Shown here: positions 26,006 to 63,611 of the stretch, one piece after another
Layout: the number at the start of each line of letters is the position of its first letter
Numbering within the stretch: position 1 is the first letter of the stretch
DNA from: an uncultured Candidatus Rokubacteria bacterium
Lineage (GTDB): Bacteria; Methylomirabilota; Methylomirabilia; Rokubacteriales; DASRDR01
Assembly: GCA_963805625.1 (NCBI GenBank)
Contig: CAWDVE010000012.1
Span: 96,001-160,000, forward strand
Reading direction: 5' to 3'
Length of the DNA: 64,000 nucleotides
Program-made: the position numbers and the translations under genes
Notes under the pieces: model-generated
Databases searched by the model: none
What the model saw: the letters and a program-made list of their open reading frames with translations, nothing else
Told to the model about the DNA's origin: nothing

Positions 26006-26344
26006 TCACACACCTTCCTGGGGCGCGCCGTCGCCGGGACCGTCCTCGTCCAGTTCCGAGGGGTCGGGGTCCATCGCATCCGGATACTTCACCGGCACGT
26101 TCTGCGCGACCCACAGCTTCCAGTCGCTCCACGCGTGGTCGAGCTCGTGGAGGAACGCCCCGCGCTTCTCGGCGGGCGGGAGGCGACGATCCACGACGAT
26201 CGTCCGCGTATCCACGTCCCACTCGGCGGCGCGATCATCCTTGTCGGGCGTGCCCTGGACGACCGAGATCTCGTACCCGAACGGGAACTCGAACCTCCGC
26301 GGAAGCCGATAGATGAGACTCTTGACCGGAGCGGGTTCAGTCAT
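26006..26344 (-). CDS. Small HExxH (ImmA/IrrE-like) putative metallopeptidase
   Basis: TIVVDRRLPPAEKRGAFLHELDHA, with an acidic tail; 112 aa. Confidence 0.6.
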   Translation of the reverse strand: MTEPAPVKSLIYRLPRRFEFPFGYEISVVQGTPDKDDRAAEWDVDTRTIVVDRRLPPAEKRGAFLHELDHAWSDWKLWVAQNVPVKYPDAMDPDPSELDEDGPGDGAPQEGV

Positions 26345-26798
26345 TCCCGGTGTGTTCCTTCCCCTCGCGAGGGCCGCCCGCCGCGCTCGCTCATCTTGCC
26401 CCGTCAGACCCCGCGCGGCGGCGGTGAGCTGTTTCCCCTTGAGCCTCCACGCCCGCCGAGAACCACGGCGCGGGGACTCTTCCACTGCGGTCGCCCGGCC
26501 ACTGGGCCGTCGAGTCGCCCCGCGCAACACCTTTCAGGGCCTTCGACTCAACCCTATGATCATAGGCCACCTCGGGCTCTCGTTTCCTGGCGGATTTAGC
26601 GAGCATTTACAGTAGCTTACACGGTTGTCCCGGGTAAGTGCTGCTCGGGCCACGTCCCGACCCTCCCCCGACACCAGCGGGCTCGGACACCCCCCACACG
26701 CTGAAGGCGGGATCCTCGGGGACTCGCACGGTGGGCCCAAGCCGGCGCCGGACGATAACCCGGACCTTTCGAGATGGCGCGGACGTGAGCATGAGGCT

Positions 26799-26842
26799 TG
26801 GCGCGCCTGAAGGGAATCGAACTCGGACCCACGGCTTAGAAG
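26799..26842 (-). repeat. Degenerate att copy of the tRNA-Arg 3' half (outermost)
   Basis: TGGCGCGCCTGAAGGGAATCGAACTCGGACCCACGGCTTAGAAG versus 63535-63579: about 3 substitutions plus a 1-nt deletion. Confidence 0.85.
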
Positions 26843-27144: not shown

Positions 27145-28299
27145 ATGACGCTCACGCTCCGCGTCATTACAGTCGCGATCCTTACCCGTCTCACTTCGCC
27201 GTTCCGCGGGGAGGCCGAGCGATGCTTCTGTTTCGGCGCCGCCTTCGCCGGCGGTTCGCCAAAATCCCCACCCCGCCGCGCCGTCACGCTGCCTCAGCCG
27301 GAGGCGCGCGCGAGAATCTCTCGGCTCCGCGGCACAGTCATCCTCGCGCTCGGCCTCCTCCTCGCGGCGCCCGCCGCCGCGCAATACCCGGGCAAGGTGT
27401 ACCGGATTGGGATGCTGCTTCACACGGACAATCCGTCCGATTCCGCCCGAATCGCCTTCCGGGAGGGTCTCCGGGCGCTCGGCTGGGTCGAGGGCCAGAA
27501 CTACATGCTCGAGCCCCGGTTCGCGGAAGGGCAGGCGGACCGGTTTCCGGCCCTCGCCGCCGAGCTCGTCCAGCTCAAGGTGGACGTCATTGTCACCGCC
27601 GGCCCTCCACCGACCCGAGCGGCCAAGGATGCGACGAAGACGATTCCCATCGTCATGGCGACCCACGGCGACCCGGTCGGGCACGGCGCCGTGGCCAGCC
27701 TGGCGCGACCCGGCGGCAACATCACCGGCCTCAGCAGCATGGCCGGCGACCTGGAGACGAAGCGGCTCGAGCTGCTGAAGGGGATCGTGCCCGGGGCGGT
27801 CCGCGTTGCATACCTCTGGGTGGCGCCCGTCACGAACGTAGACCCGTGGCTGGTCCGGAGCGGTGTCGGCGCGGCGGCCCGCACGCTGGGCGTTCAGCTC
27901 CAGCACGTCGGGGCGCGTGATGCCAGCGACCTTGACGCCGCCTTTCCGGCCATGACGCGTGACCGTATCGACGCGGTCGTCGTCTCGAACCAGCCGTTCC
28001 AGTACGCCCACCGCGCCCGGATCACGGAGCTGGCGGCAAAGTACCGCCTACCGGCGATGTACGAGATCCGGGACTATCCCGACGTCGGCGGGCTCATCTC
28101 GTACGGCACGTACTTCCCTGAACTCTTCCGCCGCGCCGCGAGCTACGTCGACAAGGTCCTGAAGGGCGCCAAGCCCGCCGACCTGCCCATCGAGCCGCCC
28201 ACGAAGTTTGAGCTAGTTGTGAACCTCAGGACGGCCAAGGCCCTCGGGTTGACGATCCCCCCAGCGGTCCTGCGGCAGGCCGACGAGATCATCGAGTGA
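27145..28299 (+). CDS. ABC transporter substrate-binding protein (ABC_sub_bind type), array copy 1
   Basis: [48 protein letters not shown]. The true start is probably near 27310, where a canonical start codon is lacking. Confidence 0.88.
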   Translation: MTLTLRVITVAILTRLTSPFRGEAERCFCFGAAFAGGSPKSPPRRAVTLPQPEARARISRLRGTVILALGLLLAAPAAAQYPGKVYRIGMLLHTDNPSDSARIAFREGLRALGWVEGQNYMLEPRFAEGQADRFPALAAELVQLKVDVIVTAGPPPTRAAKDATKTIPIVMATHGDPVGHGAVASLARPGGNITGLSSMAGDLETKRLELLKGIVPGAVRVAYLWVAPVTNVDPWLVRSGVGAAARTLGVQLQHVGARDASDLDAAFPAMTRDRIDAVVVSNQPFQYAHRARITELAAKYRLPAMYEIRDYPDVGGLISYGTYFPELFRRAASYVDKVLKGAKPADLPIEPPTKFELVVNLRTAKALGLTIPPAVLRQADEIIE

Positions 28300-29279
28300 T
28301 GGACCGGCGCGCGTTCGTCCGTGCGCTGGGCCTGGGCATCCTCGCCCGGCCCATGGCCGCCGAGCCGCAGCCCGCTAAGGTCGCCCGCGTCGGGTATCTC
28401 TCGAGCGGCGTATTCGCACGGACGGATCCGGTCGAGGGGGAACTCCTGCGGGGGCTCCGCGAGCAGGGGTACACCGAAGGCCAGAACCTCGCCATCGAGT
28501 ACCGCTCAGCTGAGGGGCGCAACGAGGCCTTCCCGGACCTGGCCGCGGAATTGGTCCGACTCAAGGTGGAAGTCATCGTGGCCCACTCGGCGCCGGCGAC
28601 GCTGGCGGCCAAGCAGGCGACGACCACGATCCCCATCGTGCTGCTGAACGTCGCGGACCCCGTCGGGGTGGGGCTGGTCGCCAGCCTGGCGCGCCCGGGC
28701 GGCAACGTCACCGGGGTGTCGAGCCAGGCCGCCGACTTTACCGCCAAGCTCCTGGAACTGGCCAAGCAGGCGGTGCCGCGGCTCGACCGGGTGGCCGTCA
28801 TCACGACCCCGACGAATCCGGCCCTGGCCCCGCGCGTGAGGGACCTCGAGGCAGCCGCCTCGGCGCTCGGGATCACGCTCGACTCCTTTGGAGTGGGCGG
28901 GCCGCCGGAGATCCAGCAGGCGTTCCCGGCGATGACCAAGAGGGGGACTCACGCGGTCGTGGTACTGGCGGACAACCTCATCTGGTTTCACCGCGCGCAG
29001 ATCCTCGATCTGGCCACCCGAAGCCATCTCCCGACCATCTGCATGTTCAAGGTGTGGGCCGGCGCGGGATGTCTCCTGGCCTATGGGCCGAGCCTCGCCC
29101 ACATGTGGTATCAGGCGGGCGTGTTCGCGGGCAAGCTCCTGAATGGCGCCAAGCCTGCCACCCTTCCCGTCGAGCAGCCCACGAAGTTCGAGCTAGTCGT
29201 GAACCTCAAAACCGCCAAGGCGCTCGGTCTCACGATTCCGCCCGCGGTGCTCGCGCGAGTGGATGAGGTCATCCAATAA
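28296..29279 (+). CDS. ABC transporter substrate-binding protein, array copy 2
   Basis: MDRRAFV signal, [36 protein letters not shown]. Confidence 0.92.
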   Translation: MMDRRAFVRALGLGILARPMAAEPQPAKVARVGYLSSGVFARTDPVEGELLRGLREQGYTEGQNLAIEYRSAEGRNEAFPDLAAELVRLKVEVIVAHSAPATLAAKQATTTIPIVLLNVADPVGVGLVASLARPGGNVTGVSSQAADFTAKLLELAKQAVPRLDRVAVITTPTNPALAPRVRDLEAAASALGITLDSFGVGGPPEIQQAFPAMTKRGTHAVVVLADNLIWFHRAQILDLATRSHLPTICMFKVWAGAGCLLAYGPSLAHMWYQAGVFAGKLLNGAKPATLPVEQPTKFELVVNLKTAKALGLTIPPAVLARVDEVIQ

Positions 29280-30281
29280 TGAACCGACGTGTTTTCGTCC
29301 TTGGCTCCCTCGGCCTCCTTGCCGCGCCGCTCGCCGCCGAGGCGCAGGCGGTGCCGAGGGTGTACCGGATCGCCCTCATCGTCAGCCTCGCGCCGGTCGG
29401 GGAGATGACGGAATCGGCAAACCCGGCGCTCCGCGCGTTCTTCGGGGAGCTGCGGAGCCTGGGCTACGTCGACGGCCAGAACCTCGTCGTCGCGGCGGTC
29501 CGCCCTCGGGCGTCCGGAACGCTTTCCCGAGATCGCGGCGGAGGTGGTGCGCCTCAATCCTGACCTCATCGTGGTGGGCCCCAACCGGATCGCCCGCGCG
29601 TTTCGGGCCGCGACCAGCACGATTCCCACCGTCGGCGCGGGCCTCAGCTTCCCGGTGGAGTACGGGCTCGCCGTGAGCCTGGCGCGGCCCGGCGGCAACC
29701 TGACCGGCATCACGGATGATGCGGGCCCGGAGATCGCCGCCAAAGCGCTTGAGGCGCTCGCGGAGGCGGTGCCGGGCACCGCCCGGGTGGCGTATACCGC
29801 GACGACCACTATCTGGAATGGGCCAATGGGACAACTGCTGCGAGCTGGCGCTCAACAGCGTGGTGTCACCCTGGTCGCCGCCTTGATGGATGGCCCATTC
29901 CTGGAGGCCCAGTATCTGGAGACGTTCCGGACCATCACGCAGACCGGCGCGGAGGCGGTGCTCGTCGGCCCCACCGGTGAGCACTGGGGCAACCGGCGTC
30001 TGATCGCCGAGCTGGCCTTACGGAACCGGCTCCCGACGATGGCCCCCTCGCGGGAGTTCGTCGAGGCCGGCGGTCTCATGGCCTATGGCGTCAGCACGCC
30101 GGACAACTGGCGACGTGCCGCCCTGTACGTGGACCGTATCCTGAAGGGAGCTAAGCCTGGTGACCTTCCGTTTGAACAGCCCACGAAGTTCGAGTTGGTG
30201 ATCAACATGAAGACCGCCAAGGCCCTCGGCCTCACGATCCCCCCGGCGGTGCTCGCTCGGGTCGACGAGGTGATCGAATAG
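29279..30281 (+). pseudogene. ABC transporter substrate-binding protein, array copy 3 (frameshifted near 29500-29540)
   Basis: The N-half (ORF 29279-29563) and C-half (ORF 29544-30281) lie in different frames and together form one SBP. Confidence 0.85.
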
Positions 30282-31283
30282 GTGAACCGCCGTACGTTCG
30301 TGGCGGGCTGCCTCGGTCTGCTGGGCGCACCACTCGCCGCCGAGGCGCAGTCGGCGGGAAAGCGATACCGGATCGCGTTCCTCTCGAACGATGGACCGCT
30401 CCCGACGATGTGCGTCCCCGACCCGAGCGACGTGGGATTCCGAGGCTTGCGAGACGGGCTTCGCGAGCTAGGCTATCGGGAGGGTGTCCAGATCACGTTC
30501 GAGTGCCGCTCGGCCGAGGGCAATTACAGTCGGCTGCCCGAGCTCGCCCGCGAGATCGTCCGGGCCGGTCCGCACGTGATCGTCGCTTCCTCCTCCCCGG
30601 CGTCGCTGGCCGCAAAAGCGGCGACCGGCACGCTTCCCATCGTGTCCGTGTACACGGCGGATCCTGTCGATCTCGGTCTGGTGGCGAGCCTGGCGCGCCC
30701 GGGTGGAAACGTGACCGGCATCTCGGCGCTCGCGGCAGATTATGTGGCGAAATGCTTGCAGCTCTTGAAGGAGACGGTTCCTCGAGCCACGCGCATCGGC
30801 GTGCTCGGGCACGGTGAGAATCGGACCTTCCGTATCTACCAACGGGAGCTGGAGCCCGCCGCGACAACTCTCGGGCTGCATCTCAAGTTCCGCCGGCTGG
30901 CGAAGGTCGAGGACATCGACAGCGACGTTGCCGCGCTCGCGAACACGGCCCCCAGCGCGGTGCTCGTGATGCACCAGCCGTTCACGTTCGTGCACCGGGG
31001 ACGGGTCGTTGAAGCGCTCGGCAAGCGACGTCTCCCCGCGATGTTCGGGAGTCGTGAAGCGGTCGAGGCAGGCGGGCTGATGTCCTACGCCGCCAGCGTG
31101 GGCGAGGTGTTCCGGCGGTCGGCCGTGTACGTCGACAAGATCCTCAAGGGCGCGAAGCCCGCCGACCTGCCCGTCGAGCAGCCCACCAAGTTCGAGTTGG
31201 TCATCAACAGGCGGACCGCGAAGGCCCTCGGGCTCACGATCCCGCCGGCCGTGTTGGCGCGGGCGGATGAGGTAATCGAGTAG
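30282..31283 (+). CDS. ABC transporter substrate-binding protein, array copy 4
   Basis: Same family motifs; starts immediately after the previous stop. Confidence 0.92.
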   Translation: MNRRTFVAGCLGLLGAPLAAEAQSAGKRYRIAFLSNDGPLPTMCVPDPSDVGFRGLRDGLRELGYREGVQITFECRSAEGNYSRLPELAREIVRAGPHVIVASSSPASLAAKAATGTLPIVSVYTADPVDLGLVASLARPGGNVTGISALAADYVAKCLQLLKETVPRATRIGVLGHGENRTFRIYQRELEPAATTLGLHLKFRRLAKVEDIDSDVAALANTAPSAVLVMHQPFTFVHRGRVVEALGKRRLPAMFGSREAVEAGGLMSYAASVGEVFRRSAVYVDKILKGAKPADLPVEQPTKFELVINRRTAKALGLTIPPAVLARADEVIE

Positions 31284-31353
31284 TGGACCGGCGCGCCTTT
31301 GTCGTTGGCACCCTCGGCCTCCTCGCCGCGCCGTTCGCTGCTGAGGCGCAGCC
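31283..31353 (+). pseudogene. Orphan SBP signal-peptide segment (5' end of an emptied array slot)
   Basis: Translates VDRRAFVVGTLGLLAAPFAAEAQP, then diverges from the family. Confidence 0.8.
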
Positions 31354-31415
31354 AGAGACAAAGAGGTCGCCTACTGCACGCTTCACAGATCAACTTCATC
31401 AGAGGCAGGGCCTCC

Positions 31416-31874
31416 ATGCCTGAGATCAAGACCGAGTTTCTGTTCACGATCGCCTTTGAAGTTCAAGTCTTCAACCTCGGCGACACGCCCCATGGCGGCC
31501 GGCGCATCGTCCGGCTCGGTACCGGCAGCTTCGAAGGACCGAAGCTCAAGGGCACGGTGTTACCGGGCGGTGGCGGCTGGTCGCTCATGCGCCGCGATGA
31601 TGTGCTGGAGATCGGCGGCCACGGCCTGGCCCTCGAGACGGACGACAAGCAGCACATCTACATGACCTGGAAGGGATTTCGCCACGGCCCGAAGGAGGTT
31701 ATTGATCGTCTCAATCGCGGTGAGACGGTCGACCCGGAGACGTACTATTTCCGCACCACGCCATACTTCGAGACGAGCTCGGAAAAGTACGGCTGGATGA
31801 ACCGCATCTGCTCGATCGCCTCCGGCTCGCGCACGGCGAGCGGGCGGACCTTCCAGGTGTTTCAGGTGTTGTAA
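31416..31874 (+). CDS. DUF3237 domain protein
   Basis: GDTPHGGRRI, GSFEGPKLKGTVLPGGG, LETDD, YYFRTTPYFET...YGWMN. Confidence 0.85.
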   Translation: MPEIKTEFLFTIAFEVQVFNLGDTPHGGRRIVRLGTGSFEGPKLKGTVLPGGGGWSLMRRDDVLEIGGHGLALETDDKQHIYMTWKGFRHGPKEVIDRLNRGETVDPETYYFRTTPYFETSSEKYGWMNRICSIASGSRTASGRTFQVFQVL

Positions 31875-31901
31875 GGGGATGCAGGTATGAGCTGCGGACC
31901 C

Positions 31902-31976
31902 CTCAAGACCTCGAAGGCCCTCGGCCTGACGATCCCCCCGGCGGTCCTCGCGCGGGCGGATGAGGTCATCGAGTGA
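31902..31976 (+). pseudogene. Orphan SBP C-terminal segment (3' end of the emptied slot)
   Basis: Translates [24 protein letters not shown] and overlaps the next start exactly as intact copies do. Confidence 0.85.
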
Positions 31977-32947
31977 TGGACCGGCGAGCCTTCGTCGCTG
32001 GCACCCTGGGCCTCCTCGCCGCACCGCTCGCTGCCGAGGCGCAGTCGGCGGTGAGAACATACCGAGTTGGCCTCCTCGCCGGAGGATCGCCGCCGTCCCA
32101 CCGTGCACCATTGACGGAGGCGTTGCGCGAACTGGGGTATGTCGAGGGCCAGAACCTTCTCATTGAGAGCCGCTACGCGGAGGGGCGGCCCGAGAACTTG
32201 CCCAGCCTTGCCGCTGACCTGGCCCGGCTGAAGGTGGACGTGATCGTGACCGTCGCGACGCCCGCAACCGCAGCGGCCAAGGATGCCACCGCCACGATCC
32301 CGATCGTCATGACCGACGTGGGGGACCCTGTAGCGACTGGACTCGTCGCAAGCCTCGCTCGACCGGGTGGGAACCTCACGGGACTGTCGATTGCGGGGTC
32401 AGCGATCCCCAAGAAGGCGTTGGAGGTGCTCAAGGAAGCGGTGCCCTCCCTGACCCGGGTCGCCGTCGTCAGGAACCCGACCAATCCTGCGCAGGAACTC
32501 GGCTATCGGGAGATGGAGGCCCCCGCGAAGGCTTTGGGTGTCGCGCTGAGACCGATCGATGGGATCTCGGGGGCGGATCTCGACCGTGTCTTCACCGACG
32601 TCCGTGGGCACGATCCTGACGCGCTTCTCGTTCTGCCACTGCATGCGAGGCTCTCCGACCTGCGGAAGATCGCGGCCTTCGCGGTGAGGAACCGATTGCC
32701 GGCGTCCTCGCTGCAGGCCGGGTCTGCGGAAGCTGGGTTCCTTATGGCGTGCTTCCCCCGAGCGGGCCATCGCTTTCCCCGTGTGGGCGTGTACGTCGAC
32801 AAGATCCTGAAGGGCGCGAAACCCGGTGACCTGCCGATCGAGCAGGCGACCGAGTTCGACCTGGTCATCAACCTGAAGACCGCCAAGGCGCTCGGCCTCA
32901 CGATCCCGCCCGCGGTGCTGGCGCGGGCGGATGAGGTCATCAAATAA
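31973..32947 (+). CDS. ABC transporter substrate-binding protein, array copy 5
   Basis: Family motifs as above. Confidence 0.92.
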   Translation: MMDRRAFVAGTLGLLAAPLAAEAQSAVRTYRVGLLAGGSPPSHRAPLTEALRELGYVEGQNLLIESRYAEGRPENLPSLAADLARLKVDVIVTVATPATAAAKDATATIPIVMTDVGDPVATGLVASLARPGGNLTGLSIAGSAIPKKALEVLKEAVPSLTRVAVVRNPTNPAQELGYREMEAPAKALGVALRPIDGISGADLDRVFTDVRGHDPDALLVLPLHARLSDLRKIAAFAVRNRLPASSLQAGSAEAGFLMACFPRAGHRFPRVGVYVDKILKGAKPGDLPIEQATEFDLVINLKTAKALGLTIPPAVLARADEVIK

Positions 32948-33918
32948 TGGACAGGCGAGGTTTCATCGCTGGCGCCGTCAGCGCGCTCGCCGCGCCGCTT
33001 GCGACCGACGCGCAAGAGCCCACGGCGGCTCACATCGGGATGCTGTCGTTGGCCAGCCCGGAAAGCATGAGCCCCCTGTTGGGCGCCTTCAGGCAAGGAA
33101 TGCGTGAGCTGGGGTATGACGAGGGTCAGAACCTGACTATTGAGGTCCGCTATGCTGCGGGAAGGGCTGAACGACTCCCCGCTTTGGCAGCGGAGTTGGT
33201 GAGCCGCAAAGTGGCAGTGATCGTGGCGGGCTCATCGCAGGCCGTTAGTGCGGCCCAAAGGACAACGACGGTTATTCCGATTGTTGCAGCAGGCGGCGAC
33301 TTGCTGGGCATTGGCGCGGTCAAGAGCCTGGCGCGGCCCGGCGGCCATATTACCGGGCTATCAAATCTCACGACCGATTTCATCCCCAAGCTCCCCGAAC
33401 TTCTTCTGACTGCAGTGCCGAAGCTCTCACGTGTGGCCGTGTTGTGGAATCCATCCCACACGAACCCCACCGTGTTGAAGAAGCTTCAGATGGCGACACG
33501 GCAGGTGAGCGGAAACTCTTTCCTGATGGAAGCGCAAACGCCCTCGGATATTGAGAACATGTTTGCAGGCACGCGCGAGCAACATATTGAGGCGGTCATC
33601 GTTTCGCCTGATGGATTTTTCCTCCAGCAAGCGAACCAGATCGCGGGTTTGACGACGAAATATAGACTACCCTGCATATCTCCGTACCGCGAAATCACTG
33701 AAAACGGCGGTTTGATGAGTTACGGCCGAAATGTCGCCAAGAGTTTTCAACGCGCGGCAACGTATGTGGACAAGATCCTGAAGGGCGCCAGACCGGGCGA
33801 CCTGGCCATTGAGCAGCCAACGACGCTCGAGCTGATCGTGAACCTGAGGATCGCCAAGGCCCTCGGCCTGACGATCCCACCCGCGGTCCTCGCGCGGACG
33901 GACGAGACCATCCAGTAA
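32947..33918 (+). CDS. ABC transporter substrate-binding protein, array copy 6
   Basis: Family motifs; the centre is visibly AT-richer than the ends. Confidence 0.92.
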   Translation: MDRRGFIAGAVSALAAPLATDAQEPTAAHIGMLSLASPESMSPLLGAFRQGMRELGYDEGQNLTIEVRYAAGRAERLPALAAELVSRKVAVIVAGSSQAVSAAQRTTTVIPIVAAGGDLLGIGAVKSLARPGGHITGLSNLTTDFIPKLPELLLTAVPKLSRVAVLWNPSHTNPTVLKKLQMATRQVSGNSFLMEAQTPSDIENMFAGTREQHIEAVIVSPDGFFLQQANQIAGLTTKYRLPCISPYREITENGGLMSYGRNVAKSFQRAATYVDKILKGARPGDLAIEQPTTLELIVNLRIAKALGLTIPPAVLARTDETIQ

Positions 33919-34893
33919 GTGGACCGGCGCGCGTTCGTCGCTGGTACCCTGGGCCTCCTCGCCTCGCCGCTCGCCGCCGACGCACAGCAGGCGGCGGGGA
34001 GGATCTACCGCATCGGCTTCCTCTCGACCTCGGGTAGCGGGGGAGCCAACCTGCGGAGGACCTTGCTCGATGGCTTACGGGAGTGGGGCTACGTCGAGGG
34101 CCGGAATCTCGAGGTCCTGCTTCGCCATGGGGATGGCAAGATCGACCGGCTGCCCGAGGCGGCGACCGAGCTCGTGCGCGCCAGGCCCGACGTCATCATC
34201 ACATCCATCAACGCCACGACGCACGCGGCCCGGAAGGCGACGCAGACCGTTCCGATCGTGATGGTCATCGGGAGTGACGTCGTCCGGCAGGGGTTCGTCG
34301 CGAGTCTGGCGAAGCCGGGCGGTAACGTCACCGGGCTGACATTCGAGGCCGACACCGGACTGATGGCGAAGCGCTTCGAATTCGTGAAGGAAACGATCCC
34401 TGGGGTCTCGCGCATCACGGCCCTGTGGGACCCCGGGCAGGATGCCGCGTCCGGCAGGTCCCGGTTGGAAGAGGCTGCGGCGGCCGTGAGTGCGCGCCTC
34501 ATCCTCCTCGAGTTCCAAGATGATCTGGACGCGCTGTTCGCCACGGCGGTGCGGGAGGGCGCCCAGGCCCTCGTCACCGGCGGTGGTGCGCGCATGTTCC
34601 GTCGCCGCCAGGAACTCGTCGACTTGGCGGCGAAGAATAGGCTGGCTGACTTCCATTACACGCGCGAATTCGTCGAAGCGGGCGGCTTGATGTCCTATGC
34701 GCCAAGCCTACCCGGGAACTACAAGCGCGCCGCCACCTATGTCGACAAGATCCTCAAGGGCACCACCCCCGCGGATCTGCCCGTGGAGCAGCCCACGCAG
34801 TTCGAGCTCGTGATCAACCTGCGGACCGCGAAGGCGCTCAGTGTCACGATCCCACCGGCGGTGCTCGCGCGAGCGGACGAAGTGATCAACTGA
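33919..34893 (+). CDS. ABC transporter substrate-binding protein, array copy 7
   Basis: Family motifs; GTG start directly after TAA. Confidence 0.92.
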   Translation: MDRRAFVAGTLGLLASPLAADAQQAAGRIYRIGFLSTSGSGGANLRRTLLDGLREWGYVEGRNLEVLLRHGDGKIDRLPEAATELVRARPDVIITSINATTHAARKATQTVPIVMVIGSDVVRQGFVASLAKPGGNVTGLTFEADTGLMAKRFEFVKETIPGVSRITALWDPGQDAASGRSRLEEAAAAVSARLILLEFQDDLDALFATAVREGAQALVTGGGARMFRRRQELVDLAAKNRLADFHYTREFVEAGGLMSYAPSLPGNYKRAATYVDKILKGTTPADLPVEQPTQFELVINLRTAKALSVTIPPAVLARADEVIN

Positions 34894-35074: not shown

Positions 35075-35317
35075 ATGCCAAAGACGAAAGTCGCCATCAC
35101 ACTTGACACGGAACTCGTGCAGAACCTGGACGATCTCGTGGCACAGCGACGGTTCGCCAACCGCAGCCAGGCGATTGAAGCCGCCCTCGCGGAGAAGCTG
35201 GCCCGCCTTGCCAAGACGCGTCTCGCACAAGAGTGCGCGAAGCTTGATCCCGCAGAGGAGAAAGCGCTGGCGGAAGAAGGCCTTGCGGGTAGCGCCGAGA
35301 CATGGCCCGAATACTGA
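35075..35317 (+). CDS. CopG/RHH family antitoxin
   Basis: KTKVAITLD...NRSQAIEAAL ribbon-helix-helix; overlaps the toxin gene. Confidence 0.85.
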   Translation: MPKTKVAITLDTELVQNLDDLVAQRRFANRSQAIEAALAEKLARLAKTRLAQECAKLDPAEEKALAEEGLAGSAETWPEY

Positions 35318-35640
35318 GGGGCGAGATTCGCTGGGCTGACCTCAACCCGGTGCGCGGTCGCGAGCAAGCTGGTCTCCGGCCTGTACTGATCCTGAGCCAC
35401 GACGTGTTCAACGACCGATCGGGCACCGTCATCGCCGTCGCGCTGACCAGCCAGGAGCCCCGCGCCGGCTTCCCGCTCACGCTAGAGAGCAAGGCTCCTG
35501 GCTTGCCGAAGCGCTCCTGGGTCAAGATCAGTCAGATCCGCACGCTCGCGGTGGAACGCATTGGCCGACGACTTACGCGAGTGCCCGACGAGGAACTCAC
35601 GCGGGTCGTCGAAGGGCTGAACGAGATCATCGCGCCCTGA
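35302..35640 (+). CDS. mazF: PemK/MazF family endoribonuclease toxin
   Basis: RGEIRWADLNPVRGREQAGLRPVLILS, QIRTLAVERI. Confidence 0.9.
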   Translation: MARILRGEIRWADLNPVRGREQAGLRPVLILSHDVFNDRSGTVIAVALTSQEPRAGFPLTLESKAPGLPKRSWVKISQIRTLAVERIGRRLTRVPDEELTRVVEGLNEIIAP

Positions 35641-35865: not shown

Positions 35866-35909
35866 TGGCGCGCCTGGAGGGAATCGAATCCCCGACTCAC
35901 GGCTTAGAA
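35866..35909 (-). repeat. att copy of the tRNA-Arg 3' half (middle)
   Basis: 44 bp with 2 mismatches to 63535-63578. Upstream AAGTACGCGGAAAG is also shared with the tRNA flank at ~63518. Confidence 0.9.
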
Positions 35910-36099
35910 AGCATGCGGGTTGTCGAAGAATAGCGCCCCGCAATCGCAACTTACGCCGCGCCATTGTTGGCGTATCGTCGCCTCATGCGGCGGCCGAGTG
36001 GTGGCCGAGTAGGGGCCGAAATATGGCCGTCTGGCGACGGCGTAAGCGACAGCTCGGGGCCAGGCGTCGGCGCTAAGAAGGACCGACTGCGCGACCCGC

Positions 36100-36340
36100 G
36101 CGCGCCGTGATAGATGACCAAGTTGACCGCGGGCCGAGGCGTGATCGCCGCGAGCTTTTCCATGAACTCAATCGGGTCGAAGACCAGATGGGACGGCCCG
36201 GAGCCGCACGCGGTCTCGGGCCAGCGGGGGACGGAGAAGATAGCGGCCGAGCTGTTCCAAGCATCCTGCCGTAAGCGCCTGCGTGTGATTGCCACGGTGG
36301 CGGACCCCATCGCCGTGCGTCAGATTCTCGCCGCCCCGGC
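36100..36340. pseudogene. IS91-like (Y2) transposase remnants on opposite strands
   Basis: Minus strand: LVFDPIEFMEKLAAITPRPAVNLVIYHG. Plus strand: CRKRLRVIATVADPIAVRQIL. Confidence 0.6.
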
Positions 36341-39359: not shown

Positions 39360-42300
39360 TCATGTCGCCGCCCGCATCTCCGCCTCGGCCTGCTCCAGCC
39401 AGAAGGTCATGCCCATCTCGCGGTACATCGTCGTCGCGGCGGCGAGGTGCTCGCGGGCCTCCTCCCGCTTGCCGGCGCGCTGGTAGAGCTTGCCGATGCC
39501 GAGGTGGCAGTGGGCGACGAGGGGGCGCATGCCGAGCTCGCCGGCGAGGGCCAGCGCCCCGCGGTAGTGACCTTCAGCCTCGGCAGCGTCCTCGGCGCCG
39601 CCGGCGGACGCGACGTCACCGGCGAGGCAGAGGGCGTGGGCCTCGCTGCCCCGCGCCCCTAGCCGGCGGCTGAGCGTCAGCGCCTCTCGAGCGTGGCGGG
39701 CGGCCTCGGCGATCCGCCCGGCTGAGAGGCAGGTCATCCCCGCGCACAGCAGAATGAGCGTCGGCCAGCTGTGAGTCTGGCGTCTGCGGAACTCCTCGAC
39801 AGCGCCCGCGACCAGCGGGAGCGCCTCGTCAGCCCGGCCGGCGAGGGCGTAGGCGGCGCCGAGGGCCGCGGCGACGACCGGTATCCCGATGACGATCTGC
39901 CACGATCGGCAGAGGTCGAGGCTGCGCTCGAGGACCCGGATCGCGCGCGGGAGATCCCCGCGACGGAGGTGGACGCGCCCGAGACTGGACAACCCGAAGT
40001 GCAGCGTGTAGGGATGATCGGCCGCTTCCGCGATCTGCACGGCACCCTCGGCGTGCCCGATGGCCTCGTCGAACCGGCCGAGCTGGGAGAGCGCGTCGGC
40101 GAGCCAGGCGCCTGACGCCGCCGACTGAATGGCGGGCCCGCCAAAGCGCTCGGCGCGCAGGTCGCCCTCGAGCGCCACGTTTCGCTCGAGCAAGGTGGCC
40201 GCGGCGCTGAACTCGCCCCGGGTGAGGTGCGTCAAGCCCAGCAAGGTCGTCGCGACCACCTCGATCGAGCGATCGCCGAGGGTGCGCGCGAGGCTCAGGG
40301 CCTCCCGCCCGAATCTGAGGGACTCGTCGTACTCGCCCGTGATCCGGCACTGGGTCACCATGAAGGTGGCGATCCACGCGAGCCGGCGCGGGTCGCCCAG
40401 CGTCCGGGCGAGCCCCTCTGCCTCGTGGAGGTACTCCCCGATGCGCGCATACTCGCCGAGCGGGAGGAGCGCGTTTCGGAGGTCGAGCCGGAAGTCGATG
40501 GCCAGCTCGGTCGTCTCTCGGGTCTCGGGGAGATGGCGGAGGGCCCCGAGGGCCTGCTCCAGGTGGGCCACGGCCTCGCGGTTGGCGCCCCGCGCCATGG
40601 CTCGGAGCCCCGCCTGGCGGAGATACGCGACCGCCTTCTCCCACAACTCCCCGCGCAGGGCGTGATGGGCCAGCTGTTCCGCCTGCTCGGCGAGGCGCTC
40701 GGGCGAGAGCCGCTCGAGGGCCTCGGTGATCCGAGCGTGCAGGGCGCGCTGCCGGTCGTGGAGCAGTCCCTGGTACGCCACCTCGTGCGTGAGTGCGTGC
40801 TTGAACGTGTACTCAAGGTCCGGAAAGAGCCGGGTCTCGTAGAGGAACTCCGCGGCCTGGAGGTGCGCGAGCCCGCGTCGAAGGCCCTCCTCCGGAAGAT
40901 CGGCCACCGCCTGGAGCAGGGGGAACGCCACCTCTGTCCCGATGACGGACGCGGTTTGGAGCAGCAGTTTCTCGTCGGCGGGCAGGCGGTCGATGCGGGC
41001 GGCCAGAATCGCCTGCACCGTCGTGGGCACCTGGATGCTGGGCAGGGCCGTTCCCAGGCGGTAGGCCCCGCGCTCGCCGATCAACGCGTGGGTCTCGACC
41101 AGCGTGCGGACGCTCTCCTCCAGGAAGAACGGGTTCCCTTCCGTCCGCTCGATCAGGAGCGGAGGGAGCGGACGCAGGCTGGGGTCGTCCCCCAGGAGGA
41201 CGTGCAGGAGGGCCTCCGCGCCCTCGGGCGGCAACGGGTCGAGCCGGAGCTGGGTGTAGAACATCCGGCTCCCCCAGCCGTGCTGGTATTCGGGGCGGTA
41301 GTTGACGAGGAGAAGGAGCCGGGCGGTCGGGAGGCCCTCGATGAGACTGTCCAGCAGGGCCTGGGTCTCGGAATCGATCCAGTGCAGGTCCTCGAACACG
41401 AGGAGCAGGGGCTGCCCCTGCGCTTCGCGCAGCAGGAGCCGCTTGATCGCCTCGAGCGTCCGCTGGCGCCGCTGCGGGGGGTCGAGCGCCTCCCACGCAC
41501 CGTCCTCCACTGACACGTCGAGCAAGGCGAGGAAGGCGGGGAGGCTCGGCTCCAGGCTGCGGTCGAGCGCGAGGAGCTTGCCCATCACCTTCTCGCGCAT
41601 CCGTCGCGGGTCGTCACGCGCCTCGATCTGGAAGTACGCCTTGAGCAGGTCAACCACGGGCAGATACGGGGTCGCCTGCCCGTACGAGGCCGAGCTGGCG
41701 TGCAGGATGAGCCAGCCCGCGCTGCGATGGGAGTGCGTCACCTCCCAGACGAGCCGGGACTTCCCCACGCCCGGCTCCCCGACGAGGGCCACGACCTGGC
41801 CGTGCCCGGAGGCCGCGCGCCCGAGCGCCTGGCGCAGCTGCTCCACCTCGCGGTCCCGGCCGACGAACGTGGTCAGCCCCCGGGCGGCCGCCGCCTGCAG
41901 CCGCGTCCGGACCGGTCCCGCGCCGGTTACCTCGTAGACCTCGATGGGCGCGCCGAGGCCCTTGACCGACATCGGGCCGAGCGGCGTCACCCCGACGTAG
42001 CCCTCGGCCAGCCGGAGCACCTCGGCCGTCAGGAGGATCGACCCGGGTGCGGCCATCTGTTCCATCCGACCCGCCAGGTGGGTCGTCTGCCCGACGGCCG
42101 TGTACTCCATGTGGAGGTCGCTGCCGATCGAGCGGACGACGACCTCTCCCGAGTTCAGCCCCACTCGGATCTGGACCAGCACGCCCTCGGCCCGTCGCAC
42201 AGCCTCGGCGTACTGCTTGACCGAGTCCTGCATCCGGAGCGCCGCGTAGCACGCGCGCACCGCGTGATCCTCGTGGGCGGCGCCCCGAAGAGGGCCATGA

Positions 42301-42708
42301 TGCCATCGCCCATGACCTGGTTGACGGTGCCCTCGTAGCGGTGAACCGCCTCCATCATCCGCTCGAGGACCGGGTCGAGGAGCTTCCGCGCCTCCTCGGG
42401 GTCGCGGTCGGCCAGCAGCTCCATCGAGCCCTTCAGTCGGCGAACAGCACGGTGACCTGCTTGCGCTCACCTTCAAGGGCGTTCCGGGACGTGAGGATCT
42501 TCTCGGCGAGGTGCTTCGGGGTATAGACCTGGGGCGCCAGAGATGGACCGGGTGAAGAGTCTAGCGGCTTGCCGCACTCCAGACAGAACTTCGCGCCGGC
42601 CGGCAGCGCGGTGCCGCACTGGGCGCACGTGGGCGCAAGCCGGCTCCCGCATTCCAGGCAGAGCTTCGCCGGCGGCGGGTTCTCGTGCTGGCACCGGGGG
42701 CAGTGCAT
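39360..42708 (-). pseudogene. Double zinc ribbon + class III adenylate/guanylate cyclase + AAA ATPase + TPR protein, frameshifted near 42435 and 42275
   Basis: CPRCQHEN..CLECG; EGERKQVTVLFAD / GDGIMALFGAP / HEDHAVRAC / RVGLNSGEV split over three frames; GEPGVGKSRL Walker A; FEDLHW. Confidence 0.88.
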
Positions 42709-47620: not shown

Positions 47621-47665
47621 TGGCGCGCCTGGAGGGAATCGAACCCCCGACCCACGGCTTAGAAG
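47621..47665 (-). repeat. att core: perfect 45-bp copy of the tRNA-Arg 3' half
   Basis: Identical to 63535-63579. Confidence 0.95.
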
Positions 47666-61986: not shown

Positions 61987-62165
61987 GGGCGGCTGACCCG
62001 GGTGCGAGTCTCCGACCTGGAGGCATTCGTCCAGGCGCGCCGTTGACGCCCCGCCAGCAGCGGCTCCTGAGTGGCGCTAGGAGCCCGTAGGAGCCGCCTT
62101 CTCCCCCTGAGCCATGGCGCGGGGCCGCCCCCGATGGGGCCCCGCGTCTCAGGGGACTTGTGTAC

Positions 62166-62185
62166 TGGTATATGATACGATACCA
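62166..62185. promoter_or_regulatory. Putative operator TGGTAT-N8-ATACCA at the Xre-integrase promoter
   Basis: Inverted repeat in an AT-rich patch ending 1 nt before the Xre ATG. Confidence 0.45.
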
Positions 62186-62186
62186 T

Positions 62187-62411
62187 ATGCGACAGATGAT
62201 CCTCCTTCGCTACTGGCGGGAGCGGCGAGGCTACTCGGTGCGCGGGCTGGCGAAGGTGGCCGGCGTGGGTTACGTCAGCATCGTGCGGATCGAGAACGGC
62301 CACATGAGCCCGACCGTCGCCATGCTGGAGAAGCTGGCCGAGGCGCTGGGGATCAGCGTGCGCGATTTCTTCCCGGTGGAGAAGCCTACTGGCAAGAGGA
62401 GGGCACAGTGA
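62187..62411 (+). CDS. Xre-family HTH regulator
   Basis: WRERRGYSVRGLAKVAGV...RIENG..SPTVAMLEKLAEALG; coupled to the integrase gene. Confidence 0.85.
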   Translation: MRQMILLRYWRERRGYSVRGLAKVAGVGYVSIVRIENGHMSPTVAMLEKLAEALGISVRDFFPVEKPTGKRRAQ

Positions 62412-63499
62412 TGAAGCGGGGTCGGAAGGTGCGAGGCGTATTTCTGCGAGAGGGGCAGTGGTGGATTCGCTATGCGTGCACGCTCGGGCACGATCATCGG
62501 AAGCCTAGTGGCGACCTGAAGACCGCAGCAACCGAGGAACACAAGGCCAAGCGCGCAGAGATGCGCGAAGCGCGCAAGGCAGGGCGCGAGTGCTGCCCCC
62601 GACTGGTGCAACGGGAGCGCCCGGTGCTGTTCGATCAGATCGTGGACGACTACATGGAGTACAGCGAGCGTAGCAAGCGCTCGTACCGGGACGACAAGTT
62701 TCGCAAGGCCAGGCTCGTGGCATCGTTCGGTGGCCGGCTTGCCAGTGACATTCGCGCCAAGGATGTCGAGGACTTCAAGGCGGCGCTTGCCGAATCCCGC
62801 AAGGTGGCGACCGTGAATCACCATCTCAAGCTGCTGAAGGCCGTCTTCAACCGAGCGATCCGGCAGGGCCGACTCACCTTCAACCCAGTCACCGCCGTCA
62901 AGCTCTTCCAGGAGCACAATGCTCGCAACCGGTGCCTCAGTCGTGAGGAGGAGGGTCGGCTCCTGAAGGCCCTCCCGGAGCGGCTTCGCCCGCTCGTGGC
63001 AGTCGCGCTCAACACGGGGATGCGCCGGGGCGAACTCCAGGCGCTCCGTTGGTCGGATGTGGACTTCGCCACCGGAACGCTCCATATCCGTCGCGACAAG
63101 GCCGGCGAGGGCCGCTGGGTCGCCTTGAACAGCGCGGCCCGAGATGCCCTCCTGGCCGTCAAACGGGAGCAGAAGGTGCTCGGCTCCTACGTGTTCTGCT
63201 CCCCGGAAGGTCGGTTCCTCCACAACCTGGAGCGTGACTGGCGGCCCGCCCTGGAGACGGCGAAGATCCCGGACTTCCGATTCCACGACTGCCGGCACAC
63301 GTTCGCGTCCCGATTGGCCATGACTCCAGGCGTCGACCTGTACACGGTCCAGCGAGCGGGAGGGTGGAAGAGTCAGGCCATGGTGCAGCGGTACGCCCAC
63401 CTCAGCCCCGACTACGTGAGGGCCGCCGTCGAGCGGATGGCCAGGGGTGAATCCGAGGGTGGAACCGGCACGAAAACCGGCACTGGGCAGCCCGCCTGA
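62411..63499 (+). CDS. Tyrosine recombinase/integrase
   Basis: ATVNHHL, NTGMRRGEL, FHDCRH, GWKS..MVQRYAH catalytic motifs; adjacent to the tRNA att site. Confidence 0.95.
   Translation: MKRGRKVRGVFLREGQWWIRYACTLGHDHRKPSGDLKTAATEEHKAKRAEMREARKAGRECCPRLVQRERPVLFDQIVDDYMEYSERSKRSYRDDKFRKARLVASFGGRLASDIRAKDVEDFKAALAESRKVATVNHHLKLLKAVFNRAIRQGRLTFNPVTAVKLFQEHNARNRCLSREEEGRLLKALPERLRPLVAVALNTGMRRGELQALRWSDVDFATGTLHIRRDKAGEGRWVALNSAARDALLAVKREQKVLGSYVFCSPEGRFLHNLERDWRPALETAKIPDFRFHDCRHTFASRLAMTPGVDLYTVQRAGGWKSQAMVQRYAHLSPDYVRAAVERMARGESEGGTGTKTGTGQPA

Positions 63500-63534: not shown

Positions 63535-63611
<77 letters not shown>

Follow-up and report, generated by a model that had tools for sequence, protein, structure and literature searches.

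How does a bacterial genome come to carry a row of binding-protein genes that share their ends, differ in their middles and include no permease or ATPase? The question is raised by positions 27310–34893 (+) of the window, by which we mean the whole 64,000-nt stretch analysed here: positions 96001–160000 of contig CAWDVE010000012.1 (C12) in the source genome GCA_963805625.1 (G000), from an uncultured Candidatus Rokubacteria bacterium. The Rokubacteria are a group of uncultured soil and sediment bacteria with large genomes. Among their large expansions is the family concerned, PF04392 (ABC_sub_bind), whose members bear no annotation beyond 'putative ABC transport substrate-binding protein'. The feature is real: it consists of tandem paralogues shuffled through conserved coding blocks, and its new aspects are the exchange of receptor genes across species and the capture of unrelated cargo. 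It is not a new recombinase system, and it is not an integron. Orphan PF04392 units recur among different neighbours, probably through homologous recombination between two protein-coding handles, one in the signal peptide and one in the tail of the gene.

The array comprises seven PF04392 genes arranged head-to-tail, plus one slot with DUF3237 cargo:

27310–28299 (+): U1, PF04392 binding protein (profile match), non-RR signal peptide
28299–29279 (+): U2, PF04392 (profile match), RR-type signal peptide
29279–30281 (+): U3, PF04392 pseudogene (profile match), frameshift near 29490–29500
29330–29347 (+): first copy of an exact 18-nt repeat within the signal-peptide handle, the other copy being at 30333–30350
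30282–31283 (+): U4, PF04392 (profile match), of a widespread subfamily with conserved middles under many different ends
31283–31976 (+): cargo unit, made up of an RR signal-peptide stub, a DUF3237 gene (31419–31874) and a 75-nt tail remnant (31902–31976)
31976–32947 (+): U5, PF04392, nearest relative in a four-gene array at another site of the same-genus genome G003
32947–33918 (+): U6, PF04392, low GC content at third codon positions (GC3, 0.65), nearest relative a solo gene of G003
33919–34893 (+): U7, PF04392 (profile match), the last unit

All seven genes match the family profile (95–166 bits; curated cut-off 25.9), and each of the seven internal junctions is tight, with the stop codon of one unit sharing 1 base with the start codon of the following one or abutting it directly. 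Together with the lack of any permease or ATPase gene inside the array, this confirms the layout that an earlier note had read from the DNA. Seven genes were also counted there; the count stands, with the qualification that U3 is frameshifted and U1 has no normal start codon. The U3 frameshift letters are identical in an independent run, X1, where one contig covers 29337–30095 with 0 differences. The likely start of U1, at 27310 right after GGAGG, reads GCG, the related sequence in run X3 having ATG at this place; the sole in-frame start is an ATG at 27145. The slot described earlier as emptied is occupied by the DUF3237 gene.

The eight junction and end stretches align with a mean column identity of 76%, so the similar junction block is real. 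The final 225 nt of the seven genes are 68–75% identical to a reference copy, and the shared blocks of the units are 75–85% alike. A GAGGT motif lies 5–10 nt ahead of the next start at 5/7 junctions, with GAGAT or GAGAC at J1 and J6. An MDRRAF start is a trait of the downstream positions; the first gene lacks it.

The same joint occurs far beyond this locus. G000 contains 61 PF04392-like stretches, ~37 of them near full length and several in tandem with the same joint; the family is present in 31/31 relatives' genomes searched, with up to 72 scored matches per genome. The exact 31-nt junction pattern occurs in at least 149 stretches of the GTDB collection. Among the matches listed, 93/147 loci belong, by record title, to Rokubacteria/Methylomirabilota and 20 to Betaproteobacteria, the rest being scattered, in a count that takes overlapping loci twice and whose scattered part may include misbinned contigs. 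Betaproteobacterial arrays reach ten or more units. Selection by junction biases a set at its last 20 nt, and the silent-site test was therefore run again on genomes picked without regard to junctions. The resulting set consists of the PF04392 matches of five same-genus genomes (labels of the type G003; 99 regions fetched; most small fragments and, in G003 and G004, the best-scoring match were left out), and with G000 it yields 141 intact genes. The tails counted in all number 201.

Shared ends might mean little more than that the units are old local tandem duplicates, their ends held alike by protein-level constraint and the array content stable. The earlier note had named, as the mark of such duplication, junction silent sites as diverged as the middles together with fixed content; the junction sites are better conserved and the content varies. 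We compared fourfold-degenerate sites in 4000 of 9743 diverged pairs among the 141 genes, with an expectation computed from codon use and the next base. The middles are saturated, with identity at chance (0.35–0.41 observed versus 0.35–0.40 expected), whereas both ends are conserved beyond expectation: identity is 0.49 at the start and 0.52–0.55 at the tail, versus 0.36–0.37 expected at either end. The SLARPGGN block, with protein conservation equal to that of the tail, shows a fourfold identity of 0.39 versus 0.37 expected, and the tail exceeds the SLARPGG block by 0.12 at fourfold sites (gene bootstrap 0.09–0.15). The excess covers codons 11–24 and 296–318, and tail identity falls from 0.59 in tandem genes to 0.48 in solo ones. 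The six intact units of the window show 0.51 at the start, 0.38 in the middle and 0.53 at the tail.

Silent-site conservation could also arise if the ends are kept as translation signals (a ribosome-binding motif, the coupled start and a weak mRNA hairpin), with generic horizontal transfer or neighbour deletion moving the genes, short gene conversion smoothing their ends and the handles being a consequence. The motifs before the next start, the high GC content at fourfold sites of the tail and its slightly better folding on the coding strand than that of recoded controls (mean z −0.55) fit such an account, as do several empty sites of G000 that look like deletions leaving a tail stub and the gene-length shared blocks seen in non-PF04392 genes too. 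However, the excess at codons 11–24 and 296–318 reaches well past the ribosome-binding motif, no covariation supports a hairpin, and where cargo (DctP, methyltransferase) has been copied within a genome, the breakpoints are marked by tail copies that follow the cargo and are non-coding. We regard this account as quite unlikely.

Local duplication is not the origin of the window units. In a tree built from 35 middles, picked to include the nearest relatives of each unit, the six intact units require six changes, and their monophyly is rejected (approximately unbiased test, p=4.5e-7). No two window units are mutual nearest relatives, their GC3 ranges from 0.65 to 0.90, and the closest relatives of U5 and U6 lie at sites 0.67 Mb apart in G003. 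Ten close relatives of U4 keep its middle (75–94% identity overall) under many different ends. Furthermore, the array's chromosomal site in relatives (7.5–18 kb fetched) carries a single different PF04392 gene in 1/6 and none in 5/6. In the junction-selected set, the nearest neighbour lies in the same genome for 40/115 ends versus 15/115 middles, with 10 expected. The presence of the tail in solved structures of distant relatives and in solo genes, and of orthologues in 4/6 syntenic slots, would suit tandem duplication under protein constraint. That explanation is contradicted by the silent-site, relocated-pair, breakpoint and monophyly results, and we consider it highly improbable.

Units have moved, and their ends have been exchanged. 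Units from different genomes form 28 pairs whose middles are at least 80% identical. In 21 of these pairs no flank is common to both members, in 6 the downstream flank is, and 1 pair is borderline; the 21 relocated pairs form 12 independent clusters. The tail is more diverged than the middle in 17/21 relocated pairs versus 1/6 pairs with a shared downstream flank, and in distant pairs the tail is far more conserved than the middle (differences 0.30 versus 0.47). One middle of the junction-selected set occurs in four genomes at 90–94% identity, with a start and tail typical of each host. RR-type starts are found in 23/24 genes behind a tail versus 27/117 others, as expected if the start travels with the unit. 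A comparison of array order among strains was proposed earlier as a check; between relatives, slot content differs: where both flanks of a slot are shared, 2/6 slots hold unrelated units and 4/6 hold orthologues. Breakpoints were read in seven pairs above 94% identity, the census being unreliable below ~94%. In six of these pairs homology begins 20–153 nt into the unit and stops 4–171 nt short of the unit end; in one it runs on into the flank. Breakpoints are thus spread over ~150 nt at each unit end. Shared similar blocks, variable breakpoints within them, and copy number and content that vary between species, as in tandem-paralogue recombination, are all observed here.

Foreign DNA lies between the same handles. 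Non-PF04392 DNA is found upstream of 27/231 tails, with variable left edges and tail remnants that begin at model positions 1–40. Among the genes lying as cargo from one tail to the next are methyltransferases, cytochrome P460, DctP and an insertion sequence (IS; 24 gaps, some of them plain neighbours). In particular, a DctP unit (1054 nt, 98.6% identity) occurs twice in one genome, as does a methyltransferase unit, in differing order, and the homology of these duplicated units starts in the LLAAP codons and ends at the tail, placing both breakpoints in the handles. DctP, a binding protein of the tripartite ATP-independent periplasmic (TRAP) type, is here fused in frame to a PF04392-type RR signal peptide, and the tail copy is non-coding (L061:4974–5999 and L033:901–1974). 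The DUF3237 unit of the window is 89% identical to a G004 copy from the LLAAP codons on. In G004 this unit is first in line behind a cyclase gene and has a non-RR start; in G001 it is likewise first behind the cyclase gene, with the tail kept and a different binding protein following. One further gene between two tail handles, at L055:4522–5442, encodes a CAP12/Pycsar-type TIR domain. The data speak against passive duplication, with single genes exchanged across species and foreign genes captured between the same handles. The earlier proposal that junctions act as handles that add, swap or drop units draws support from the silent sites at the ends, the separate origins, the moved units and cargo, and the varying slots.

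Integrons and clusters of attC sites lacking integron integrases (CALINs) offer a model for such cargo rows; their attC site is an imperfect bottom-strand hairpin with an AAC/GTT core, and their integrase is IntI. Like them, the present arrays line up promoterless-looking single-gene units, carry cargo of mixed kinds and have a repeat at every joint. A site-specific system with an unlinked recombinase acting in trans on an attC-like junction would account for the precise stop/start joints, the promoterless units, the foreign cargo, the long betaproteobacterial arrays and the exchange between handles that share only short exact words. Unlike in integrons, no IntI, attC or fixed crossover was found, and the repeat is protein-coding. 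The breakpoints of the closest pairs are scattered (left +20 to +153, right −4 to −171), as are the starts of the tail remnants. The IntI profile TIGR02249 gave 0/15 matches over the cut-off (best 76 bits versus 265), and an attC-type pattern with a 20–50 nt spacer matched once in the 64-kb window, outside the array, with 0.98 matches expected by chance. The tail shows no bottom-strand fold (z 0.23/−0.04) and 0 Rfam matches. An attC-like or RNA hairpin in the tail was rejected: the RNAalifold covariation term is positive (unfavourable), the folding z is only −0.55 on the coding strand and about 0 on the other, and over 297 tails the predicted pair does not rank with the top covarying columns, the top pair being the DQVIE/DEVIQ swap. 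A linked recombinase was rejected as well, a tyrosine-recombinase match being found at only 7/179 loci (searched with two queries from G000, the window integrase being the one that gave matches). We consider a site-specific system very unlikely. The part of the earlier reading that denied attC sites and IntI therefore holds for profile and pattern searches, while 'integron-like', in the sense of a fixed crossover or a dedicated recombinase, does not describe these data. Searches for other carriers gave 0 matches of the exact junction pattern in viral contigs and 0 matches of junction DNA in plasmids. Transposon-like insertion of units was rejected at 10 filled/empty sites: neither a target duplication nor a terminal repeat is seen consistently, and at several of the sites a deletion has left a tail stub.

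We infer homologous recombination as the cause, and the scattered breakpoints suggest a dependence on its general machinery. In the mechanism that we propose, handle 1 would be the second half of the signal peptide (the LLAAPLAAEAQ codons) and handle 2 the last 75–130 nt of the gene. Through a crossover in the tail handle, a unit would be added downstream of a resident gene and keep its own RR-type start, in agreement with the RR starts seen at downstream positions. If the crossover fell in the signal-peptide handle instead, the unit would end up in front and take over the resident start; crossovers between two resident handles would delete or copy a unit. Any DNA between two handles would be carried along, unrelated genes included. 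The stop/start overlaps and the GAGGT motif of the tail would couple translation, so that each new unit could be expressed and exported. Incoming DNA would likely arrive by natural transformation, a route weakly suggested by the intact comEC and dprA frames of G000; both families also occur in 10–11/14 control genomes. That the handles are a selected, integrase-free capture platform across soil phyla, supplying Rokubacteria and co-occurring Betaproteobacteria and Binatia with a community-wide receptor library that plugs into dCache kinases and cyclases, seems to us doubtful. The same doubt applies to a functional analogue of the integron for chemical sensing, in which any handle-flanked DNA would enter an export-ready array by transformation.

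Array change may be ongoing. In a short-read contig of X1 (1169 nt at depth 5.15, without mismatches), 29329 is followed directly by 30333, so that U3 is skipped exactly, at the 18-nt repeat; the joint is in frame and restores a clean reading frame, and 31-mers spanning it are absent from G000. X1 may be the source sample, and the joint could also be produced by a library chimera or a co-occurring strain. The contig is therefore suggestive only.

Several observations weigh against recombination through the handles. The U3-skipping joint is a single contig of one run in which U3 itself is present at depth 5.8, and the joint does not appear in the other runs X2, X6 and X8, at depth 2–5 (a depth too low for their lack of U3 cover to be used). 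The ~1-kb single-unit circles for which a search had been suggested are missing from the 6 joints listed (15/206 joints in another listing), which is not evidence of absence, as contigs drop rare forms. About half of the fourfold sites in the window's handles differ, so the handles are not homogenised, and the longest exact word common to two junctions is 12–23 nt, versus the 40–70 nt given for efficient recombination in the accessible text of PMC9484751. GC at fourfold sites is higher in the tail (0.91 versus 0.83), above what our control assumes, and translation signals could account for part of the silent-site excess. The tail effect is absent in 4/21 relocated pairs, and the 4/6 syntenic slots with orthologues are stable. 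Gene conversion could have replaced the ends once a unit had moved in some other way. Non-PF04392 accessory genes of these genomes have short shared blocks as well, an observation that carries no formal null. Finally, the handles cannot account for the first gene at a new core site.

Comparable shuffling is known from other families. The closest parallel is with the streptococcal tipC and staphylococcal esaG genes: in the sections of PMC9484751 (Garrett et al. 2022) available to us, the paralogues stand in tandem and vary in the middle but have conserved blocks at the 5′ (signal peptide) and 3′ ends, tipC genes recombine through the blocks at both gene ends with no dedicated recombinase described there, and recombination changes both copy number and sequence. 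Unlike tipC and esaG, which are described there as toxin-immunity genes of one locus within a species, the present genes encode receptors, occupy dozens of loci per genome, include cross-species units and carry cargo. The lpl genes of S. aureus are likewise tandem paralogues for exported proteins on an island, recombined at a conserved coding block with a junction-spanning piece inherited as a unit, but there, according to the portion of PMC2568036 at hand, the central block is conserved and the ends vary, whereas in the present units the handles are terminal and it is the middle that moves. In the target-recognition domains of the H. pylori Type III mod genes, a specificity region moves through conserved-motif flanks between loci and species; it is a domain replacement inside one gene, and the available excerpt of PMC3467074 describes neither a growing tandem array nor cargo. 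The expansions of orphan tripartite tricarboxylate transporter (TTT; TctC/Bug) binding proteins in Rhodoplanes, Bordetella and Cupriavidus resemble ours in having many orphans, few transporters and some genes near histidine kinases. These PF03401 expansions differ in being ascribed to lineage-specific duplication and rare in islands, in what could be consulted of PMC5994714, while here different genomes share middles and the paralogues of an array are unrelated. No published account of a PF04392 expansion or of such arrays was found in the literature searched, mainly open-access, and the terms 'ABC', 'paralog', 'substrate-binding' and 'recombination' are absent from the main text of the Rokubacteria genome paper. 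A mechanism so far described for immunity and surface genes of pathogens is thereby extended to receptors for nutrients or signals, and to exchange across species. It offers a testable route for the flexibility of Rokubacteria genomes and a large natural library of receptor specificities.

What might the arrayed proteins do? PF04392 is a type I periplasmic binding protein family (PDB relatives 3LKV, 6HNI and 3LFT), and three solved members bind Trp, Tyr or Phe, as reported in the accessible part of PMC10443332. The middles are under purifying selection (fourfold differences 0.26 versus 0.075 at second positions). The array itself lacks the permease and ATPase genes of an ABC importer operon, and a genome-wide count, another of the checks suggested earlier, finds one cognate operon of PF04392, permease and ATPase genes (C19:91447–94151) for the ~37 long PF04392 matches of G000; U5 is ~24% identical to the transporter-linked paralogue. 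Judging from sequence, the array proteins are predicted periplasmic small-molecule receptors that likely share a partner, more probably dCache sensor kinases or cyclases than the single cognate transporter. Fold and purifying selection fit the 'ligand-binding repertoire' proposed before, of which the ligand and the partner are predictions. Three PF04392 genes of G000 adjoin dCache-HAMP kinases or a cyclase (L264–L266: C19:555664–559010, C22:5641–10598 and C24:160508–164361). These loci resemble LuxP/LuxQ and HptA/HptS, in which binding proteins stimulate dCache kinases (PMC8050422, in part). Unlike these pairs, the array genes have no such neighbour, and PF04392 occurs 0 times in the part of PMC8050422 that was available. 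PF04392 genes lie within 3.8 kb of such signalling modules in 8/27 cases in G000 and 21/117 overall, versus 5.8% of random G000 places; the other 96/117 genes have no signalling module nearby, which counts against a signalling role. A recurring platform consists of a kinase, a DZR-cyclase-AAA-TPR gene and then the first unit (10/141). Overall, we lean slightly towards a signalling receptor library; uptake through a shared transporter is possible with clearly less probability, and any other role is unlikely.

The three dCache-linked loci contain dCache-HAMP-GAF kinases or a dCache cyclase next to other orphan binding proteins (TctC, DctP and SBP_bac_3). The DZR-adenylate cyclase-AAA-TPR genes form a second expansion of G000, with 35 N-terminal matches and 40 cyclase domains (one gene lies in the window at 39360–42476). 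Their C-terminal end is conserved and often overlaps the first PF04392 start, and these ends may also be handles.

The surroundings of the array belong to a genomic island anchored at a tRNA gene:

26799–26842 (−): att relic, a degenerate copy of the 3′ half of tRNA-Arg(TCT), at the left boundary of the outermost island segment (blastn, 91% over 45 nt)
35075–35640 (+): ribbon-helix-helix (RHH) antitoxin (35075–35317) and PemK/MazF-like toxin (35302–35640)
35866–35909 (−): att relic, likewise a degenerate 3′-half copy of tRNA-Arg(TCT), at the right boundary of that segment (blastn, 95% over 44 nt)
47621–47665: third copy of the tRNA-Arg(TCT) 3′ half
62114–63499 (+): island integrase
63535–63611 (−): intact tRNA-Arg(TCT)

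The att relics that flank the array are the outer two of the three tRNA-Arg(TCT) 3′-half copies. Three copies and a single distal integrase indicate a tandem island, of which the array occupies the outermost segment, one without an integrase of its own. The three 3′-end copies and one integrase characterise the surroundings of this array only; other PF04392 arrays sit between core genes, without att sites. The island integrase and tRNA-Arg(TCT) thus explain the att relics, not the array. The toxin-antitoxin pair was rejected as a system component, since its homologues have a PF04392 neighbour at 0/11 other loci (within about 1.5 kb). The att sites and the toxin-antitoxin pair that the earlier note attached to the array are both real, and neither belongs to the system.

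Tandem accretion at tRNA-Arg(TCT) is apparent over 26799–63611, where the three copies, at 91, 95 and 100%, age with distance from the tRNA, and the same interval holds many IS elements by Pfam (IS630-, IS110-, IS1380- and Mutator-type). In G002 the intact tRNA lies ~4.5 kb from the same left flank. A short frame at 35951–36310 (−), with no Pfam match on 36117–36310, resembles what we take to be the C-terminus of an IS91-type transposase. Just outside the island, 26006–26530 (−) is a small conserved open reading frame with a HELDH motif and no Pfam match, common to several same-genus genomes.

Elsewhere, many PF04392 genes and arrays (L165–L263, for example L185, L236, L245, L226, L220 and L260) lie at core-gene boundaries, the G000 counterpart being empty or holding a tail stub only, and a six-unit array of G003 sits exactly between one stop codon and the next start. 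At C16:315824–316565 and C10:1729580 of G000, several degenerate tail handles lie close together with no binding-protein gene between them. Among the relatives of U4, P0026 (573 aa) is a fusion of Peripla_BP_6 and PF04392 domains. ARAGORN calls a tRNA-SeC at C21:228127–228224 of G000.

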